Of a stretch of 64,000 bases of DNA, positions 24,001 through 59,581 are shown one piece after another (the first letter of the stretch is position 1; each line of letters starts with the position of its first letter). Origin of the DNA: a virus (lineage: Duplodnaviria > Caudoviricetes); IMG/VR virus record IMGVR_UViG_2974597119_000001, positions 1 through 64,000 of that record, one strand, 5' to 3'. The notes under the pieces were generated by a model, which was not told the origin of the DNA, searched no databases, and worked only from the letters and a program-made list of their open reading frames with translations. The position numbers and the translations under genes were made by a program.

Positions 24001-25654
24001 TGTCACCCGCCACGCTGTCGATGGTGTAGTCGCCGCGCTGCAGGCCGATGGCCCGCACCTGCCGGATGGCGTCCTCGATGCCCAGCTTGCCGAGCGAGAC
24101 CTGGAACTGGTCTTTCTTGCCCTGCTTGAGCGCCACGACCAGGGCCGCGTTCGCCTCCATCTCGCCCAGGGCCTGACCCAGCACCTTCTGCGCGCCCGTC
24201 ACGGCTTCGCGCCGGCGCGCGTTCAGCTCCTGCGCAGCCTGCAGGTCGGCGCCCGTGGCCGCCTCGCCGAGCTCGATTTCCTTCGCCGCGTCCATCAGGT
24301 CGCGCGCGGTGCCCAGGGCCTCCTCGCTAGCCTGCATATAATGGTGAAGGTGGAAGTCCTGCATGCCTTCGGCGACCCGCTCCACCTCGTCCGGCATGTC
24401 GGTGTGGATCCGGCGCGCCAGCACCTGCGCGGCACCGGCCACGCCCAGCACGTCGACGACGCTGCGGTCGACCAGGGCATCACCGCCGACGGCCAGCGCC
24501 AGCGAGTTGACGCTGTTGTAGGCGCCGATGCCGATATGCTTGCCCAGGGTTTCCTCGGGATTCGGCCCGGCCAGCTTCTCGAACTCGGACAGGAACGCCC
24601 GCGTCTGCATGGTGCGCAGGTCGTTGTTCAAGTCCTCGGCAATCTTGGCGTCGGTGTCCGGGTCGGCGCTGTACTCGAGCACGTAGGCTTTCGGCTCGGC
24701 GGCCGCGCGGTCGATTTCGGCGCTCGCCTCCCGCGCCTTCTTCTGGATGGCGCGCAGCTTCTTCTGCGCGCGCAGCAGTTCGACCGCCTGCTTGGCGTCG
24801 GCCAGGGCGGCGTCGGCGTCCGGCACGGCCGGCTCGCGGATGTTCTTGAGCTCGTCGCGGATCATGCGCGCGGTCTCGCCGCGCTGCACGGCCGCCTTGC
24901 GCTGGGCGTCCGTCATCTGCGCCTGCTTCGCGGCGCGCGCGCGGTCGGCCTCGGCCTTGAGCTCGTCGTCCGTCAGGCCGGCATCCTCGGCGCGCCCCTT
25001 GTAGTCCGTCTGGAAGCCCAGGCCGCCCGGGTTGTCAGGAATCGGGTTCAGGTCTTGGACCGACAGCACCTCCGGATCCTTGGCGTCCAGCGGAACCTCG
25101 CCGATGCCCGCCTCCATGCGCGCGGCCGAATCGGTGACAAGGCGCTGGCGCTGCAGCTCGACCGCATCGTTGGCGCGCTGCACGAGCTCGCGGTGATGCT
25201 TCTTGCGCATCTTGCCGAGCGCCGCGTCGGACAGGTGCGCGTAATCGGCCTCCGGAAACTCCAGGCCGGCCGGATCCCAGCCCATCGTTTGCGCGACGGT
25301 CTGCACGAACTCGCGCTCGTGCGCCATGCGCTGCGCGCGCACGTTCTCCTGCGCCTTCTTCTTCGACTCGAGGATGCCCGCCTCTTTGTCGCGCTTGCGC
25401 TGTTCCTTTTTCTGGTCAGCCTTGTCCTTCTTGCGCTGCTCGGCCTCGCGCTTGTATTCGGACTCCGAGCGCACGCTGCGCAGCTTGAGATAGTTCAGCT
25501 TGCCGCCGGCGCCGCCGATGACGTGCGCCGAGCCGTCCGGGTTTTCCTGGATCAGCACAGGCTGCCCCTCGGTGCCCGGCCCATTGGGATGCACGGTGAT
25601 CCAGCGCGCGCCGGCCGGGATTTTCGAGGCTTTCAGGAACAGGATCGGCTTCAT
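21098..25654 (-). CDS. Large SNF2/SF2 helicase-like protein, probable virion cargo
   Basis: Start MKPILFLKA (25654); FGTGSGKS, VDESQ, GMNIQ and QRNGR motifs. Confidence 0.85.
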   Translation of the reverse strand: MKPILFLKASKIPAGARWITVHPNGPGTEGQPVLIQENPDGSAHVIGGAGGKLNYLKLRSVRSESEYKREAEQRKKDKADQKKEQRKRDKEAGILESKKKAQENVRAQRMAHEREFVQTVAQTMGWDPAGLEFPEADYAHLSDAALGKMRKKHHRELVQRANDAVELQRQRLVTDSAARMEAGIGEVPLDAKDPEVLSVQDLNPIPDNPGGLGFQTDYKGRAEDAGLTDDELKAEADRARAAKQAQMTDAQRKAAVQRGETARMIRDELKNIREPAVPDADAALADAKQAVELLRAQKKLRAIQKKAREASAEIDRAAAEPKAYVLEYSADPDTDAKIAEDLNNDLRTMQTRAFLSEFEKLAGPNPEETLGKHIGIGAYNSVNSLALAVGGDALVDRSVVDVLGVAGAAQVLARRIHTDMPDEVERVAEGMQDFHLHHYMQASEEALGTARDLMDAAKEIELGEAATGADLQAAQELNARRREAVTGAQKVLGQALGEMEANAALVVALKQGKKDQFQVSLGKLGIEDAIRQVRAIGLQRGDYTIDSVAGDTFLTVNGAGLDRLAKPIQRGDLEQVRRNLSIIQGEHDEDGWLPLGVANRPDLVMDVKPGVAPRLAEQFQPGADLEQSLRDYIGGRAADGDAPGDIVADIQSAEFFVKVGRDRSEEYRAALDAVAPLKGQDGKMQRAEALADRFDQYADQFVEQRYGGGRSTLNRQKFTVDQKAVDALHRALSDTPEGTAAYKQLGELTPQDQRALREFFYRNVAKESPEAAGLRADLDRIQGAEPEKETTDMFGDTVTNPEWSEWRQQRDELAAKVGAASLTWGKYVDTMRGNENAYEAVQDLIRSNVAKSFADAHNRLNPGAPIKLGKAVIRNNLNHLDATDPAAREDRMQRERALIDSLRERVGGRYASGSVGEKMDAARDRQEAFEQAQMGFFSAQDDMFGGGAGEAAKEIQLGGDERHTLGHEAERQIAGMMGIVGQNFKPGQPTKLWNPTMSGGKNAARQRLVKMVDANKRVVAAFGTGSGKSLLQLASFTHLREQGKVKRGLFLVPSIVQGQFSGEALRYLEPGKFNWHIEPGAGREDRIAAYKNPDTHFAVMTHQSFRDDMLHLGAKHAGIAESEMSDRLNAMTDDERKDWMRGVLDAEGINFDYLTVDESQYTLNRAGKENSRLANVVDALSHHTPYYLMASGDPVKNDASEVYDLMRKMDPARYNDRAAFMRRYGADTLASKDALRREMARYVYPSKIDPDVAADRKEMRLGLSDGQKLALGELDQHFSTARLARMQGKVDVTAMRAISPSSFEGVPDDQHEAVARDLQQNLGILKSSAVQRVINTHPDNPNVDQLSQVAAERKGKPGVVFAHSLEAVKMLTERLEREGHRVVTITGADSAKEKDRKRQMFNPEQGEAQADILVASDAGATGMNIQRGQWLYQYDTPQTAMTHAQRNGRIFRTGQKNDVELIDGVPDHPEVHRARDRLRKKYGLRDLMTTPLEGLDESGVAYYLKQRQAAPDSQPSLL

Positions 25655-25684: not shown

Positions 25685-25914
25685 GGCCCCGGCGTTACCG
25701 CCGGGGCCCCGTTGTCTTTCCAACCGTCCGCGACACCTTTCGCAACGCCAGCACCCCTATGCACCGGTCTCGCTGCTACTCGGACAGGCACGCCGCAAGG
25801 AGAACGGCGCCCCGCGCAGCCGGGGTTTTTCTCTACAATCCACGCCCGGCTGGGACTGTCCGGCCTATCCTCTCATGAGGCCCCGCCGGCTGGGGGATCA
25901 GCTATCGCAAACAT
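25685..25914 (-). ncRNA. Candidate structured ncRNA (~230 nt) with its own late-type promoter at 25920-25935
   Basis: No credible ORF (13 codons only); nested helices 25781-87/25856-62, 25817-24/25845-52, 25791-95/25805-09; strong 3' hairpin 25685-25708. Confidence 0.5.
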
Positions 25915-25938
25915 GGCCCATCATTGCGTCACGACCGG

Positions 25939-26265
25939 TCAGAGGCCGCCGGCATCCGCATCGATCAAGGTGAAGGTCTCGCCCTCCGGGTCGGTCAGGT
26001 CGGCCGAGCCCATCGCGTAGGAGGCATTGATGCGATACGTCTCGATGGCCGCCGCGAGCGCTTCCTGCAGGTCGGCGTGCGCCGGCATGCGGTCGACCAC
26101 GGAATGGTCGATGTAGTCGCCGAGCAGGAACAGGTTGTCGCGCGTGTAGTACCGCTTGAGCAGTTCCTTGATCAGGAACCAGTACACGCCGAAGTTCCGG
26201 TAATTGCGCGGGTCGGTCTGTAGGAGCTGCAGCGTGCTCGCCGCAAGTTGCTTGGGATCGATCAT
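25939..26265 (-). CDS. Hypothetical protein coupled to the DarB-like gene
   Basis: 108 aa, ATGA overlap, GGAGG SD. Confidence 0.7.
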   Translation of the reverse strand: MIDPKQLAASTLQLLQTDPRNYRNFGVYWFLIKELLKRYYTRDNLFLLGDYIDHSVVDRMPAHADLQEALAAAIETYRINASYAMGSADLTDPEGETFTLIDADAGGL

Positions 26266-29200
26266 GCCGCCTCCTTGCGCAGCGCGTCAGCGAGTTTCAT
26301 GCCCTGCGTCTGGAACGGAATATGGGGCTGGTAGGACGGGCCCAGCTCTTTGACGGTTTTCTCGCCGATCTCGGGATGCTTGGCGATCATGTGTCGCACG
26401 GCGTCCGCGACGGCTTCGTTGCTCATGACGGGCAGGCGCATCAGGTCGCGCACGGTTGCCTCGGGGTCGCCATCCTTCGCCGACACCATCATCGCGGCCG
26501 CCAGATCGTGGTAGCCGTTCTTCTCGGCCAGCCTGACAAGAGTGTTGCGCACGGTCCCGGCGACGGGTTGGCCGTTGTACCAACCGTCGGCGGATAGCGC
26601 GCTCCCAATCTGACTGCCATCGCGATAGCTCCACAGCTCATTGGGAAGCACGTTGACCTGCCGGCCATAGCTTTCCGTCTTGGGCTGCACGGCCTGAAAT
26701 GACTGTCCCAGCACGCCGTCATGCTTCGCCTTGGCAAACAGCGTCGCCAGCGCCTTGCGCGGCCACGTCGGCGTGGTCGAGTACCCGAACTCGGCCATCG
26801 GCGCCGCCTCGCGCAGCGCGTCGGCGAAGGTCGGCGCCCGGCGGATGCGCTCGCCCTGGACGCGGCTGAACGCTTCCCGCGCCTCTTTCTCGAAGCCCTC
26901 GCCGAACGCCATCTTGCCGGCCGATGTCCAGCGGTTGTGCCGCTGGCCGAACTTGCCGGGGTACTTCTCGACGAACCGCGCCTCGGACCGGCCGCCGCGC
27001 CGCTTCGTCATGTACTCGGTGCCGAACGTGCGGGCCTGCTGGTCGGCGATATACGCCTGGATGGCCTTCTCGCGGTTTGCCTCGGTCGGAAGCAGGTAAT
27101 CGTGCGTGTCGTGCTGGTTATGATGGCCGTAGCTTTCCGCCACCTCCAGCGCGCCGGTTTCCCGGTTGATCATCGGCACATCGCCATAGGGCATGCGGAA
27201 CGTGTGCGCCTTGGCGCCCGCCTTCACCTGCCGCTGGATCGCATCGTGGCTCGACGCCAGGATCGACGGCGGCAGCGCCGTCACGTCTTCCCAGCTCCCC
27301 AGGTTGTTCGCCTTGTCGGCGGCCGCCGCCTCGAGCTTGGCCGCGACTTGCGCCGCCTCGGCCGCCTCGTCGAACTTGAAGGCCGCCACGCCGTGCGCCA
27401 GCTTCGACGACGGCACGGTGATCGCGCCGGCGCCCTTGATCTCGCCGTAGCGGCGCATGGACACGTCACCCGTGGTCGGGTTCACGTCGGTGACGACCCA
27501 CTTCACGGTGCTGCCGTCGGTCTCCGTCACGTCCAGGCCGGTGCCGCGCTGCATGGCGATGCCGGTATCCGGATGGATGACGACAGGCTGGTCGCTGTCC
27601 AGGGCGCCCTTGGCGCCGAAATACTTGTTGTTCGACAGGATCGTCTTGGCGCGCTCGATCTTGGCGCGCAGGCGTTGGGCGCTCACGGAATTCTTGTTCT
27701 GCAGGTCACGGAAACTGCGCTTCATGACCTGGAACCGGACGAACTCCGACGCGGCCGCACGGCGCTGCTCGCCGTCGTAGCGCTCCTGCGCCGCCGCCTT
27801 GTCGGCCTCGAACTTGGCGCGCTCGGCTTCCGGGTCGGCCGACATCATGATCAGCAGGTCGGAGCGGTCGAACCGGCCCTCGCGCGCCATGTTGTCCACG
27901 CGGTCGCCGCCGTTCCACAGCACGTCCTGCCAGTCCTTTTTCGCCATCATCGACTGATAGCGATAGCCGTCGAACGAGCCCTTGCTGATGTAGACGTGCA
28001 GCCGCACGGCCTCGTTGATATTGCCCTGGCGCAGGCCACGCCCGTTGCGCTGCTGCATCGAGGCCGGCTCCCACGGCAGGTCCATATGGTGGATGTCGGT
28101 CGTGCGTTTCTGGAGGTTCTGGCCCTCCTCCATCGTCTTGTTGCCGATTACTACATCGAGCTTCCCGGCATTGAACGCGTCAGCGATGTTCTGCCGTTTG
28201 GCAGACGATTCCGCCTCCTGCGCGTTCATGATCGCGATCCGGTCGCGCGGGATACCGGCCTTCACCAGGGCGGCGGCGATCTTCTCGTGCGTGTCCACGG
28301 CCTCGGCGAACACCACCTGCCCGCCATCCTTGGCGCCAGCGGCGATATGCTTGGCGGCCTCGGCGTATTTCGGCGAGTGCGCGCCGGCGTGCTCGGCGCC
28401 CAGCAGCTCCAGGTCCATCGCCGCCTTCGCCATCTTGTCCATGATCGAGAAGATGTGCGCGTCGCCGGTCGCATCCTTCTTCGTGGCGAGCTCGGCCATC
28501 TGCTCGCGCAGGTCCGCGTACACCGCCTGCTGCTCGGCCGTCATGTCGATCATGTGCATGCGGTCGTCGCGCGCCGGCAGCGCCAGCCCCACGTCGGCCG
28601 CCGTCTTGCGGTCGATGTAGCGGCGCATGATCTCGCGCAGCTCACCCAGGTTCTTGAACCCGACCGTGACCAGCGCATCCTGGATCGTGCCGTCGGTGCC
28701 CAGGATCTTGTCGTTGGCGAACTCGCAGAAGCGGTCGAGGAATTCTTCCGAGTTGCGGATGCCGATGCGCTCGAACGCCTCCGGCGAGATATGCGACAGC
28801 ATCGAGTAAATCTCGAGCGGCGAGTTCTTCGTCGGCGTCGCGGTCAGCATGAAAATGCCGTTGCCGCCGTTCTGCTCACGCACCCACCTCGTCTTGAGGT
28901 TCATGTCGAGCGCGCGATTCGACAGGCCCTGGCCGCCCAGGAACTTCGGCGACTCGCCGAACCGGGCGCGCGCCGCGTACAGGTTTTTGAACGCGTGGCC
29001 CTCGTCAACCAGGAGCATGTCGACGCCCAGGTCGTTGAAGTAGATCGCGTCGGTGCGCTTACGGAAATCGCGGTCGGCGATGGCCTGCTCGTAAGCCTCG
29101 CGCACCTTCTTGCGGCGCTTGTCGCCGGCGTTGCCCAGCTTGTCGCCGCGCTGGACCCAAAAATCCTCGCCGACGTACTGTTCCTTGGTGATCGGGTCCA

Positions 29201-32200
29201 GGTCGATGTCGTTGAACGACGGCTGCGAGATGAACACGAAATCGTAGTCGTTCTGCGTCAGCTCGTGCAGCTTGCGGTTCCGCTCGGCCGCCGTGTCCGG
29301 CTTCGATTTCAGGTTGCCCGCCTTGTCGCGGGTGTAGGTCTCGCCGATCACCAGCACGCGCGAGCCCGGGAACCACTTCTCGGCCTCGGCCATCCAGTTC
29401 GCCAGGACCGACTTCGGCACGACAAACGTCGGCTTCTTGGCCTGTCCGTTCATCTTCGCCATGCGCGCCAGCATCAGGCCGCGCACGGTCTTGCCCAGGC
29501 CCACGTCGGCCGCGATGATGCCCTTGCCGGCCGCCAGCGCCCAGCGCAGGCCGCCGTACTGGTAGTCTTTCAGGCCCTCGTCGTTCAGGCCCGGTATGTC
29601 GATGGGCGCGTTCGAGAACTCGCGCTGCACGAAGCCCCGGAATTTCCGGTTGTACAGATCCTCGACCTGATCGCGGTAGCGCGACGACAGCAGCCAGAGC
29701 TTGAAATCCTCGTTCCAGCGCTCGATGGTCGGCAGGTCGTCTTTGCGCACGCCGGTGCGGTTCAGGTACTTGTCCAGCAGCGCGGCGTCGCCGTACTGGT
29801 TGCCGCCCTGGATGGTGTAGATGCCGTCGGCAAACGTGATCGACACGTCCGGCTGCTTGCGCACCCAGTCGTTGTCGGAGCCGTTCTTTCGGTCGTTGAA
29901 GTAGGCCGCCAGCACGTCCGTCGGCACGAAGGCCGAGTTGACCATCACCTCGACATCCTCGAGGGACTTCGGATCGATCACTTCCTCCAGGCGCCGGGCC
30001 TGGGCGGCATACTTCTCGGCCAGCCCGTCGCGCAGGTCGCCGCGCGCGATCTCGGCGCGCACAAGGTCCAGCTTCGGCCAGAGCTCGCCGGTCAGGTACT
30101 GGTCCATCGTGGTCCACTGGCCGCCGCCGGCGTAGGCGTAGGCCGGCGAGGCGAACAGCGCGTCCTCGACCTCCTCCACATCCTTGCCGATCCGGTCGGC
30201 CAGCTCCGCCGCTGAGAATGTGCCGCTGGTGCGCTCGAGCGCCAGGGACTGCGCGGCGGTGTCCAGCGTTCCCTCGACGCGGCGCGCGGCTCGGCCGGTC
30301 ACGGCGTCGGACAGGGAGCCGTCGGCGCTCACGGCGCCGATCAGGCGGTACAGCGTCTTGTCCTGCGACGCGGCAAGCTGGAGGTTGGCGTTCTTGCCCG
30401 GGTTGCCGTGCTGGGCCACCCAGGCGCGCACACGCTCCTCGAGCGCGGGCCGGTCGACGGCCTGCCCGGTGAACAGCCGGTCGATGTCGGCCGCGATGTC
30501 CTGCGCGTCGCGCACGGCGGGATCCGCCAGGAATTCGTCGACGCGGTGCCAGCGCGGCGGCCGGCCCTGCAGGATGTAGGTCACGCCGTCGACGACCTTG
30601 GTGTCTCCGACCTTGGCGTTGCCATAGGCCCGCATCACAGCGCCGCCGAGCGCCTTCTTCTTCGCGGCCTCGTCATCGCCAAGCGCATCGAGCACGGCGT
30701 GCACGTCCGGCGTGGCCGTCGTCACCTCGTCCGGCGTCCACTTCGCGATCTCATCCGGCACGCCCTGCATGGAGCCGGACACGGTGATGTCCTGGCCCAT
30801 GCCGGCCTTGGCGCGCCAGCCGGCTTCCATCGTGCCGAAGATGCTCGAGGCGCCGCGCCCGGCGAAGTAGCCGCCGGACAGGTATTCGTCGTCCCATACG
30901 CCGAGCTGCTTGAGCGTGTCCCGGTTGACCGTCATCAGCGCGCCGGCCACATCGTCCGCCCTCTTGCGGAAGAACACGATGTCGGTCGTCACTCCGGTAT
31001 GCGAGTGCTCGAATGCGGTATTCGGCATGCGCACGGCGCCCAGGAACTCGCCCTTTCGCAGCAGGCGTTCGCGCAAGCTCCGATTCGACTTCGCGTCCAT
31101 CACGCTGGTCGGCACGATCATGGCGACGATGCCACCCGGCTTTGTCTTGTCGAGCGCGGTGTCCAGGAAGTAGCCCTCGGCCGACTTGAGGCCGGGCTTG
31201 TCGTCCTTGATCAACGGGCCGCGCAGGCCGAACGGCGCATTGCCGATCACCACGTCGAATTGCCGGTCGCCGTCCTGCGTCGCGAAGCGCTCCAGGCTCG
31301 CATTGACGATCTCGTGTCGGTCGCCGTGCAGCACCTCCGCCACCTTGGCGCTGGTCGGGTCGAGCTCGACGCCGGTCACCTTCACGCCGGCCGGCGCGGT
31401 GTGCAGGAACACGCCAGTCGCGCAGGACGGCTCGAGCACGGTGCCGCTCGTGAAGCCCAGGTTCGCGAGCGCCGTCCACATGGCCGAGGCCACGGCCGGG
31501 TCAGTGTAGAACTCGTTCCAACTGTCGCCGCAGCCGCCGTTGCCGCTGTACTGGCGCATCAGCGCGCGGTCGGCGTCGCTGTACTCGTCCTTGTCGGCGG
31601 TCACCAGATCGACGACCTGCGCGTTGATCTCGCGGCGCTGGCCCTTGGTGATGCCAGCCGGCACGCCGAAGGAGCCGCGCTCGGCTGGCGCTATGTCCAC
31701 AGCTACCGGCGTTGTGTCCAGAGCTGCCGGCGCTATGTCCGGAGCTTTCGCCGGCGTCGCGGCCGCAAGGTGCTTTTCCCGGATGAACCACCCGCCGTCC
31801 TTCCTGAACGTGTACGGGTCGATGTCCTTCGCCTCGGCCTGCGTCAGGTCGCGACGAATGATGCCGCGCAGCGTCTTGCCCTTGCCGTTCTTGGTGACGT
31901 GCTCGACGATCTCGGGCGCCGGGTCGGCGGTCATGCCCAGCGCTTCGCGCGGCAGGTAGTCCTGCATCTGCACGGGAACAACGCCGTTCGCCTGCTGGCG
32001 CCCGCGCGTGGTGCTCGACAGGTGCGCCATCACCTTGCCATCGTCGCGCGCGGCGCCAGTGTTCAGGACGTGCCAAGTATCGCCATCGTGCTCGACGACA
32101 GGCAGGTCGAGCGCCGGCGGGGCCACGAACTCGCTGGCGGGCTTCGGTTCGGCGGCCGGCTGCGCGAACAGATCCAGCGTCTCGCCCTTGGCCGGCTCGG

Positions 32201-32555
32201 CAGGCTTGAGGCCGTCGAACATGGCCGCCATCTCGGCCGGCGTCTTGCCGTCGAGCTTCCCCATGCCGGCGAAAATCTGCTGCTGCTGGCCCTCGGTCAT
32301 GCCGGCCAGCATCTGCGCGAGCCCGTTCAGGCCGCCGTGGCGCGCGATGAAGGCGTCCAGCTTCGACCGCTTCGCGCGCGGCGCCGGCGCAGGCGGCGGT
32401 TCCGCAAACAGCGATCCCTGCGCATGCGGTTTGAGCGCGACCTTCTGGATCCGGATGTGCGGCTTGACGACCGTGCCGTCCTTGCGGACGTGGGCGCCCA
32501 CATGGACCGGCGTGTCAAAGAGCGCGAGCTGCGCTTTCGTGAGGAGAATGATCAT
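26262..32555 (-). CDS. DarB-like DNA methyltransferase + SNF2 helicase polyvalent protein
   Basis: 2097 aa; EFYT, VLEPSCATGVF and IGNAPF (amino-MTase); DVGLGKT, VDEGH, LTATP and QRNGR (SNF2). Confidence 0.88.
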   Translation of the reverse strand: MIILLTKAQLALFDTPVHVGAHVRKDGTVVKPHIRIQKVALKPHAQGSLFAEPPPAPAPRAKRSKLDAFIARHGGLNGLAQMLAGMTEGQQQQIFAGMGKLDGKTPAEMAAMFDGLKPAEPAKGETLDLFAQPAAEPKPASEFVAPPALDLPVVEHDGDTWHVLNTGAARDDGKVMAHLSSTTRGRQQANGVVPVQMQDYLPREALGMTADPAPEIVEHVTKNGKGKTLRGIIRRDLTQAEAKDIDPYTFRKDGGWFIREKHLAAATPAKAPDIAPAALDTTPVAVDIAPAERGSFGVPAGITKGQRREINAQVVDLVTADKDEYSDADRALMRQYSGNGGCGDSWNEFYTDPAVASAMWTALANLGFTSGTVLEPSCATGVFLHTAPAGVKVTGVELDPTSAKVAEVLHGDRHEIVNASLERFATQDGDRQFDVVIGNAPFGLRGPLIKDDKPGLKSAEGYFLDTALDKTKPGGIVAMIVPTSVMDAKSNRSLRERLLRKGEFLGAVRMPNTAFEHSHTGVTTDIVFFRKRADDVAGALMTVNRDTLKQLGVWDDEYLSGGYFAGRGASSIFGTMEAGWRAKAGMGQDITVSGSMQGVPDEIAKWTPDEVTTATPDVHAVLDALGDDEAAKKKALGGAVMRAYGNAKVGDTKVVDGVTYILQGRPPRWHRVDEFLADPAVRDAQDIAADIDRLFTGQAVDRPALEERVRAWVAQHGNPGKNANLQLAASQDKTLYRLIGAVSADGSLSDAVTGRAARRVEGTLDTAAQSLALERTSGTFSAAELADRIGKDVEEVEDALFASPAYAYAGGGQWTTMDQYLTGELWPKLDLVRAEIARGDLRDGLAEKYAAQARRLEEVIDPKSLEDVEVMVNSAFVPTDVLAAYFNDRKNGSDNDWVRKQPDVSITFADGIYTIQGGNQYGDAALLDKYLNRTGVRKDDLPTIERWNEDFKLWLLSSRYRDQVEDLYNRKFRGFVQREFSNAPIDIPGLNDEGLKDYQYGGLRWALAAGKGIIAADVGLGKTVRGLMLARMAKMNGQAKKPTFVVPKSVLANWMAEAEKWFPGSRVLVIGETYTRDKAGNLKSKPDTAAERNRKLHELTQNDYDFVFISQPSFNDIDLDPITKEQYVGEDFWVQRGDKLGNAGDKRRKKVREAYEQAIADRDFRKRTDAIYFNDLGVDMLLVDEGHAFKNLYAARARFGESPKFLGGQGLSNRALDMNLKTRWVREQNGGNGIFMLTATPTKNSPLEIYSMLSHISPEAFERIGIRNSEEFLDRFCEFANDKILGTDGTIQDALVTVGFKNLGELREIMRRYIDRKTAADVGLALPARDDRMHMIDMTAEQQAVYADLREQMAELATKKDATGDAHIFSIMDKMAKAAMDLELLGAEHAGAHSPKYAEAAKHIAAGAKDGGQVVFAEAVDTHEKIAAALVKAGIPRDRIAIMNAQEAESSAKRQNIADAFNAGKLDVVIGNKTMEEGQNLQKRTTDIHHMDLPWEPASMQQRNGRGLRQGNINEAVRLHVYISKGSFDGYRYQSMMAKKDWQDVLWNGGDRVDNMAREGRFDRSDLLIMMSADPEAERAKFEADKAAAQERYDGEQRRAAASEFVRFQVMKRSFRDLQNKNSVSAQRLRAKIERAKTILSNNKYFGAKGALDSDQPVVIHPDTGIAMQRGTGLDVTETDGSTVKWVVTDVNPTTGDVSMRRYGEIKGAGAITVPSSKLAHGVAAFKFDEAAEAAQVAAKLEAAAADKANNLGSWEDVTALPPSILASSHDAIQRQVKAGAKAHTFRMPYGDVPMINRETGALEVAESYGHHNQHDTHDYLLPTEANREKAIQAYIADQQARTFGTEYMTKRRGGRSEARFVEKYPGKFGQRHNRWTSAGKMAFGEGFEKEAREAFSRVQGERIRRAPTFADALREAAPMAEFGYSTTPTWPRKALATLFAKAKHDGVLGQSFQAVQPKTESYGRQVNVLPNELWSYRDGSQIGSALSADGWYNGQPVAGTVRNTLVRLAEKNGYHDLAAAMMVSAKDGDPEATVRDLMRLPVMSNEAVADAVRHMIAKHPEIGEKTVKELGPSYQPHIPFQTQGMKLADALRKEAA

Positions 32556-59527: not shown

Positions 59528-59581
59528 GCCGAGATTGTGCAGTCACGACGCACGTTCCGAAGCGAAAGCTGCATCGACACA

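Follow-up and report, generated by a model that had tools for sequence, protein, structure and literature searches.

A long-form Proteo-phage-1 RNA inserted behind a promoter of a 94-kb phage: a candidate accessory RNA

In lambdoid phages, the late leader is a slot for varied cargo: lambda encodes its 6S RNA there, between PR′ and tR′, and in Stx phages the stretch from tR′ to the lysis genes houses tRNA and stx genes. Antiterminator RNAs of the put type act in cis on the zinc-binding domain of the RNA polymerase β′ subunit, suppressing downstream terminators, and cryo-EM of HK022 put revealed a V-shaped RNA with a minor-groove triplex that acts with no protein factor (PMC9378689). Rfam holds a further family, RF03044 (Proteo-phage-1), under the type 'Gene; sRNA'. 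The motif reportedly goes back to a comparative survey that Weinberg et al. published in 2017. The main text of that survey (PMC5737381) makes no mention of it.

Here, we compare with these systems an RNA locus in a window of 64,000 nt, i.e. the whole stretch of DNA analysed, which covers positions 1-64,000 of a complete virus record of 94,005 bp. A preliminary description of this DNA had placed a structured non-coding RNA of ~230 nt behind a late promoter between two SNF2 genes. Indeed, a conserved non-coding fold of ~200-230 nt is found there, preceded by a genuine copy of the phage promoter. All window features given below are on the minus strand.

Promoter and core of the RNA

The RNA lies in a gap of 284 nt between the stop codon of a 108-aa gene and the ATG of a 1518-aa helicase gene. 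The 108-aa gene (25939-26265) encodes an Ulx-like anti-restriction protein with a match to phrog_1629, and its TGA (25941-25939) forms the 5′ edge of the gap. Further upstream, a 2097-aa protein (26262-32555, minus) is a fusion of an N6-methylase and an SNF2 domain. The Ulx-like gene and the N6-methylase/SNF2 gene are arranged similarly to the ulx-darB pair of P1, and together they fit a Dar-like block, one that relatives without the RNA keep.

As claimed in the preliminary description, a full copy of the phage's promoter motif points into the gap. It spans 25935-25920 and consists of GTCGTGAC (25935-25928), GCA and the −10-like pentamer ATGAT (25924-25920), followed by GGGCC and an ATG at 25914. 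The composite motif TCGTGACNNNANNAT occurs 12 times in the window against 0.15 expected, and exact GTCGTGAC nine times against 3.5 expected, with every copy (12/12 and 9/9) on the minus strand. Genes with a copy in front include those for the portal, the head maturation protease and a structural protein of the virion, both giant genes, and also non-structural genes. Given these copy numbers, the strand and the gene contexts, the 25935 site truly belongs to the main class of promoters of this phage; the label 'late' would follow from the structural genes behind motif copies. In most copies an ATG lies 5-7 nt past the −10-like pentamer, so that the genes behind the motif would be read from leaderless mRNAs. 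Sites of the form GTCGTGAC-N3-ACAAT number 12-17 on the minus strand (e.g. at 59549, 39198, 32601, 20539, 13999, 10713, 4740 and 702), and with an ATG at 5-7 nt they imply leaderless mRNAs for the portal, protease, helicase and other genes.

By analogy with these leaderless genes, transcription of the RNA probably starts at or near A25914. This gives a predicted 5′ leader (25896-25914), which carries the ATG of a 13-codon ORF (25914-25873; MFAIADPPAGGAS and a stop codon). The downstream SNF2 gene was rightly said to have a promoter of its own: a second copy, with GTCGTGAC at 25677-25670 and ACCAT ahead of the ATG at 25654, marks the 3′ edge of the inserted cassette and is kept among relatives.

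The preliminary description had not recognised the RNA family and had proposed cmscan against Rfam as a check. This search returned RF03044 at 25895-25815(−) with 60.6 bits (E = 1.7e-10; gathering score, 42 bits), so that the 5′ 81 nt constitute a full-length match to model positions 1-82. It is the one RF03044 copy in the virus genome. The window copy shows the family's layout of hairpin P1 with its inner stem, one unpaired nucleotide and hairpin P2, as well as the AGCCGG loop of P2, the A-run and the CCGGC tail, with 25850-25845 pairing with 25824-25819. An RNase P-like RNA, brought to mind by GAUAAGCCGG, AAACACCGGC, GGGUGCCAG, a P4-like GCCGG/CCGGC pseudoknot and the tRNA neighbours of the family, was also considered; it was rejected, as RNase P families gave no Rfam match at E ≤ 10 and local alignment to E. 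coli rnpB was no better than that of shuffled sequences.

The conserved long form and its fold

When IMG/VR was scanned for the pattern formed by the conserved loop and tail, 119 loci were returned, mostly clear family members, and all seven loci that were checked (7/7) passed the Rfam threshold. Among 96 unique copies, 39 align with the window 3′ of the core as far as a terminal hairpin whose loop is GAAAGA. The conserved RNA is ~2.5 times longer than the Rfam model, i.e. ~205 nt as compared to 82 nt.

For the fold, 33 non-redundant sequences were aligned over ~210 nt (alignment A2), in which RNAalifold found compensatory changes at 20 of 40 predicted pairs. A structure written by hand and counted on the same alignment comprises ten helices, two pseudoknots included, with 52 pairs. 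Across these 52 pairs and 33 sequences, 96.4% of the cells pair, versus 32-45% when partners are slid by 1-3 columns, and the observed values were reached in none of 500 shuffles. Covariation among homologues, on which the preliminary description had staked its proposal, is thus strong: compensatory changes on both sides are seen at 31 of the 52 pairs.

In the 5′ domain, P1 (25889-25885/25864-25860) and P2 (25858-25854/25840-25836) covary in the 33 sequences, and P1b (25880-25877/25872-25869), the inner stem of P1, belongs to the RF03044 core. A ministem of 4 bp, S0 (25895-25892/25884-25881), turns P1 into a pseudoknot, and a second pseudoknot, PK2 (25850-25845/25824-25819), joins the P2 loop to the tail. 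Five PK2 pairs are invariant in A2 and the sixth switches from U-A to G-C; one locus (L085) has the variant AGCAGG with CUUGC. The flank 5′ of the core is not conserved among homologues.

The conserved 3′ domain (25711-25817) lies outside the Rfam model and is delineated by A2, a dedicated 3′-domain alignment (A5), RNAalifold and the pair counts. Its helices P3, P4, P6, P7 and P8 are all found 3′ of the core in the window: P3 at 25817-25815/25732-25730, P4 at 25814-25805/25795-25785 with the pyrimidine-rich apical loop UUCUCCUUG (25804-25796), P6 at 25776-25771/25747-25742, P7 at 25767-25761/25754-25748 and P8, with the loop GAAAGA, at 25724-25721/25714-25711. Covariation in P8 is visible by eye in A5 (GUGGG/CCCAC, GCGG/CCGC and GCGUG/CACGC; GUUG/CAAC in the window). 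The family helix P5 (GAGAC with GGUCU) does not form in the window, where three of its four columns are unpaired. A covariance model of the 3′ domain (R1), whose training set included the window, scores the window copy at 64.6 bits; searched with R1, the window and the loci of the relatives yielded no copy beyond this one. A second subfamily (L097, L113, L137, L162 and similar loci) has a clamp stem, UGCAUCGGAGAG...CUCUCCGAUGCA, in place of P5-P8, which encloses variable inserts, some with tRNA-like T-arms.

The multibranch fold put forward earlier survives in part. All helices it named exist and occur in the single-sequence minimum-free-energy (MFE) structure; at −120 kcal/mol for the 235-nt transcript, this structure beats shuffled sequences only modestly (z = −2.2). 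For the family fold, the nested part amounts to −102 kcal/mol with the two GC-rich pseudoknots left out of the sum, and since both are still to be counted, the two folds are comparable in energy. Comparative support falls on the family fold only. Two of the proposed pairings belong to it, CAGCCGGG/CCCGGCUG being PK2 and CGCCG/CGGCG the top of P4. The 5′/3′ closing helix (25910-25903 with 25735-25728), which draws on the non-conserved 5′ flank, and the CGGACAG/CUGUCCG helix (25862-25856 with 25787-25781) are confined to the window; they lack conservation and compete with P1, P2 and the P4 base.

The gap had been said to hold a 13-codon ORF and no other. This ORF is present; mechanical ORFs in the gap also include one of 46 aa on the same strand and others of 66-157 aa in antisense. 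None of these is kept open among homologues: no reading frame runs through all 33 sequences, so that the 13-codon and 46-aa ORFs are not conserved. It could be argued that the 13-residue peptide, translated from a leaderless AUG, is the functional product and the RNA structure incidental, and the ATG does sit at the spacing typical of leaderless genes behind this promoter. Homologues, however, have no conserved ORF or start codon there and the ORF crosses helices that covary as RNA, and we regard this reading as highly improbable.

An inserted cassette and the settings of the family

The 10-bp GC hairpin that the preliminary description had seen at the end of the RNA is present at 25708-25685, with a GUAA loop, and is likely the 3′ end or a stabiliser. 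It is followed by UGCUCAUG, and a terminator scan flags it on the opposite strand only; given that the RNA strand has no U-tract here, the hairpin is not a canonical intrinsic terminator and transcription may continue into the helicase gene. In homologues the equivalent place, i.e. after ~200 nt, is taken by an intrinsic terminator or a tRNA gene. At three checked loci the tRNA begins ~200-240 nt past the core start, which marks the 3′ boundary of the RNA. Matching RNA-seq contigs come from one oligo-dT run of organism X1, the only RNA run to hold any; DNA runs hold fragments of relatives only. The two short X1 contigs (24500-24598 and 25418-25589) lie outside the RNA region and are 100% identical to parts of the helicase gene, so that this phage or a near-identical one was present in that sample.

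A hairpin without a U-tract, in an RNA that is co-oriented with the helicase gene and lies ~30 nt upstream of its promoter, is what one might expect of a cis-acting leader or insulator, i.e. a long structured 5′ UTR, with transcription from 25914 continuing past the hairpin, that stabilises or processes the mRNA of the 1518-aa helicase or tunes its translation, or a hairpin that insulates this mRNA from upstream read-through; lambdoid phages likewise embed the RNA in the late leader ahead of a holin gene. Yet the helicase ATG has no Shine-Dalgarno sequence and is apparently built for leaderless initiation from its own promoter. The same RNA precedes unrelated genes and tRNAs elsewhere and is therefore not matched to the helicase gene, and relatives do without it. 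We consider a leader or insulator role rather unlikely.

The history of the site was approached through 83 related phage loci, gathered via the helicase N-terminus and the 108-aa protein; close DNA relatives of the window stretch were not found among GenBank phages. Five of the loci (L003, L004, L007, L008 and L012) lack the RNA, and there the 108-aa gene's stop runs directly into the helicase promoter. At the equivalent site, two others (L006, L010) carry ~190 nt of unrelated, GC-rich inserted sequence that includes CCCCACGG repeats and a terminator, and a further two (L082, L083) an AT-rich stretch of ~430 nt that has iteron-like GGTAACC/GTAACCAG repeats and may be an origin or a partition site. 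The interval from the Ulx-like to the helicase gene is thus a variable hot spot. RF03044 is found in one of the 83 related records, where it lies elsewhere, ~160 nt upstream of a tRNA-Tyr gene. Promoter, ~205-nt RNA and GC hairpin form a self-contained inserted RNA cassette, 25914-25685(−). With the site empty or otherwise filled in relatives and RF03044 this rare among them, the RNA is accessory cargo in the lineage, outside its core programme. These comparisons between genomes show a sporadic and mobile distribution, and the RNA is dispensable in sister phages.

This bears directly on the earlier suggestion that the RNA serves the two giant SNF2/DarB-like proteins as a functional partner, a decoy or an antitoxin. 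What speaks for it is only where the RNA lies, with the Ulx-like/DarB-like genes on one side and the helicase gene on the other. The closest relatives keep these genes without the RNA: 82 of the 83 related records retain the neighbourhood or the helicase and lack it, the other carrier has it in a tRNA cluster, and the site is a hot spot with unrelated inserts. Moreover, the family occurs elsewhere beside other genes, with none of its ~90 members in other phages adjoining SNF2 genes. We consider the suggestion very unlikely.

Homologues are found in the Pseudomonas phages phiAH14a, Solano and PS-1, and also in genomes of Stutzerimonas, Paraburkholderia, Pandoraea, Caballeronia, Methylocystis and other Proteobacteria. 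In phiAH14a, NinG is followed by a phrog_3412 protein, which takes the Q position, and then by the RNA and a holin gene. The gap ahead of the holin gene starts with a TTGACA promoter candidate and a short leader that includes an intrinsic terminator; a small ORF comes next, then the RNA and finally a second terminator. The small ORF (~55 codons with a GGAGG ribosome-binding site; 3830-3994 in L206, phiAH14a), between the first late-leader terminator and the RNA, is also present in L128 and L136; the phiAH14a record instead annotates, across the RNA, an ORF on the opposite strand. In a Stutzerimonas prophage, a TTGACG-18-TAAATT promoter is followed by terminators and then the RNA, and at other loci terminators flank the RNA on both sides. 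A terminator ~20 nt upstream of the core leaves no room for a promoter in the lambdoid homologues, where the RNA would be made by read-through within the late leader, a setting that fits a cis role equally well.

Across 84 non-redundant loci, 150 sampled downstream ORFs included 28 from holin families and six Rz-like spanins, and holin or spanin genes lie downstream of the RNA in about a third of the loci. The commonest upstream families are phrog_3373 and phrog_3412, neither with a Pfam domain. Members of these two families occupy the Q position upstream of the RNA and lysis genes (L206 3010-3696, L207 2646-3203, 17 IMG/VR loci, A4), and could be a new kind of late regulator in Pseudomonas-type lambdoid phages. 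Both are absent from the window phage, which rules them out as an obligate protein partner of the RNA. In PS-1, the RNA belongs to the early-left operon, with the repressor side on one flank and the bet/exo genes on the other. At ~7 of 60 loci the RNA has tRNA genes next to it, and in one genome (G044) it lies within a tRNA cluster. P22 has no RF03044 match at the gathering score, and its late leader none at E ≤ 10.

The positions at the head of transcription units raise a cis-acting alternative by analogy with put, in which the nascent, pseudoknotted 5′ domain would bind RNA polymerase and confer resistance to terminators or Rho in the genes or RNA arrays that follow. The core lies near the predicted transcript start in the window, its two adjacent hairpins are joined by one nucleotide, as predicted for put, and terminators follow homologues that head late operons, the PS-1 early-left operon and untranslated tRNA arrays. 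On the other hand, no homology to HK022 put was seen, as the HK022 genome matched neither RF03044 at the gathering score nor R1; the RNA is, at ~205 nt, three times the size of put; the gene downstream in the window is served by a promoter of its own; and close relatives get by without this RNA. In addition, lambdoid homologues sit downstream of a PR′-like promoter and at least one terminator, so that another antitermination device would already be needed. That long-form Proteo-phage-1 is a put-like, cis-acting RNA is thus a doubtful proposition, and equally doubtful is its extension to a widespread, protein-independent RNA that rides on RNA polymerase as a larger functional analogue of put. 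Were it true, many proteobacterial phages would place this RNA at the head of late operons and of untranslated tRNA or RNA arrays as a defence against terminators and Rho, and the window copy, right behind a defined promoter, would make a clean test system.

A candidate accessory RNA and its relation to known RNAs

Based on the conserved non-coding fold, the invariant pseudoknot, the bounded unit, its mobility between transcription units and its dispensability in sister phages, we infer a discrete, stable RNA that is made with the late genes and acts in trans as accessory cargo, a reading to which we assign a probability of roughly one half. Transcription would start ~19 nt ahead of the core and proceed along with that of the structural genes. 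The 5′ domain folds into two hairpins joined by one nucleotide and is locked by two pseudoknots, the first made by the 4-bp ministem over P1 and the second by the invariant AGCCGG loop and the CCGGC tail after the A-run, while in the 3′ domain (P3-P8) the long hairpin P4 displays its pyrimidine-rich loop. The RNA would be released as a discrete stable species, bounded here by the GC hairpin and in homologues by a terminator or the 5′ end of a tRNA, and would act in trans on a host or phage factor rather than in the service of the neighbouring helicase genes. Its likely recognition surface is the invariant AGCCGG/CCGGC pseudoknot with the A-run. The missing P5 and an MFE prediction that favours window-specific pairings count against the trans-acting reading.

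The apical loop of P4 might in addition serve as a pairing seed for Shine-Dalgarno-like sequences, as the window loop, UUCUCCUU, is complementary to the Shine-Dalgarno sequence. This loop is pyrimidine-rich in 33 of 33 sequences; CCUC or CUCC is found in 23 and absent from the other 10, and such a motif, which is not invariant, weakens the idea. A global anti-Shine-Dalgarno role was considered separately and rejected: AAGGAGAA-like words occur 47 times in the window versus 21 expected, as ribosome-binding sites predict, and the loop motif is variable.

Proteo-phage-1 is an orphan RNA, catalogued and widespread in phages of Proteobacteria. In its ~205-nt form it comprises ten helices and a double pseudoknot, and such complexity usually accompanies a specific molecular partner. 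The natural insertion, with sister sites empty or otherwise filled, makes isogenic comparisons conceivable, and the promoter 19 nt ahead of the core predicts the 5′ end of an RNA that should be easy to express.

Among described RNAs, GOLLD and ROOL are likewise structured orphan RNAs of phages and prophages that sometimes adjoin tRNA genes (PMC5737381); the present RNA is much smaller (~205 nt), unrelated in sequence and without an Rfam match to either. HK022 putL and putR share with it a place near the transcript start and two adjacent stems with tertiary strand interactions (PMC9378689), and Proteo-phage-1 members, too, lie ahead of terminators in early-left or late operons. They differ from put in having no sequence or model similarity to it, in being ~3 times longer and often downstream of a terminator, and in being dispensable in close relatives.

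A parallel in position is the cargo of the lambdoid late leader. In Pseudomonas-type lambdoid phages the RNA fills the gap from the Q-position gene to the holin gene, behind a TTGACG-18-TAAATT promoter and a short terminated leader and sometimes with tRNAs. Unlike lambda 6S RNA, it is not the PR′-tR′ transcript but comes after that terminator and has a complex conserved fold. The equivalent gap of P22 gave no match, and the window copy is set instead in the anti-restriction/helicase block of a 94-kb phage.

The closest described relative is RF03044 itself, with which the window RNA shares the two hairpins, the invariant AGCCGG loop, the A-run with the CCGGC tail and the setting in phages of Proteobacteria. 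The window copy departs from the family in its missing helix P5 and its use of a lineage-specific phage promoter. The Rfam model ends after 82 nt, whereas the window copy and at least 32 homologues continue for ~125 nt more (P3-P8) and add the ministem pseudoknot at the 5′ end.
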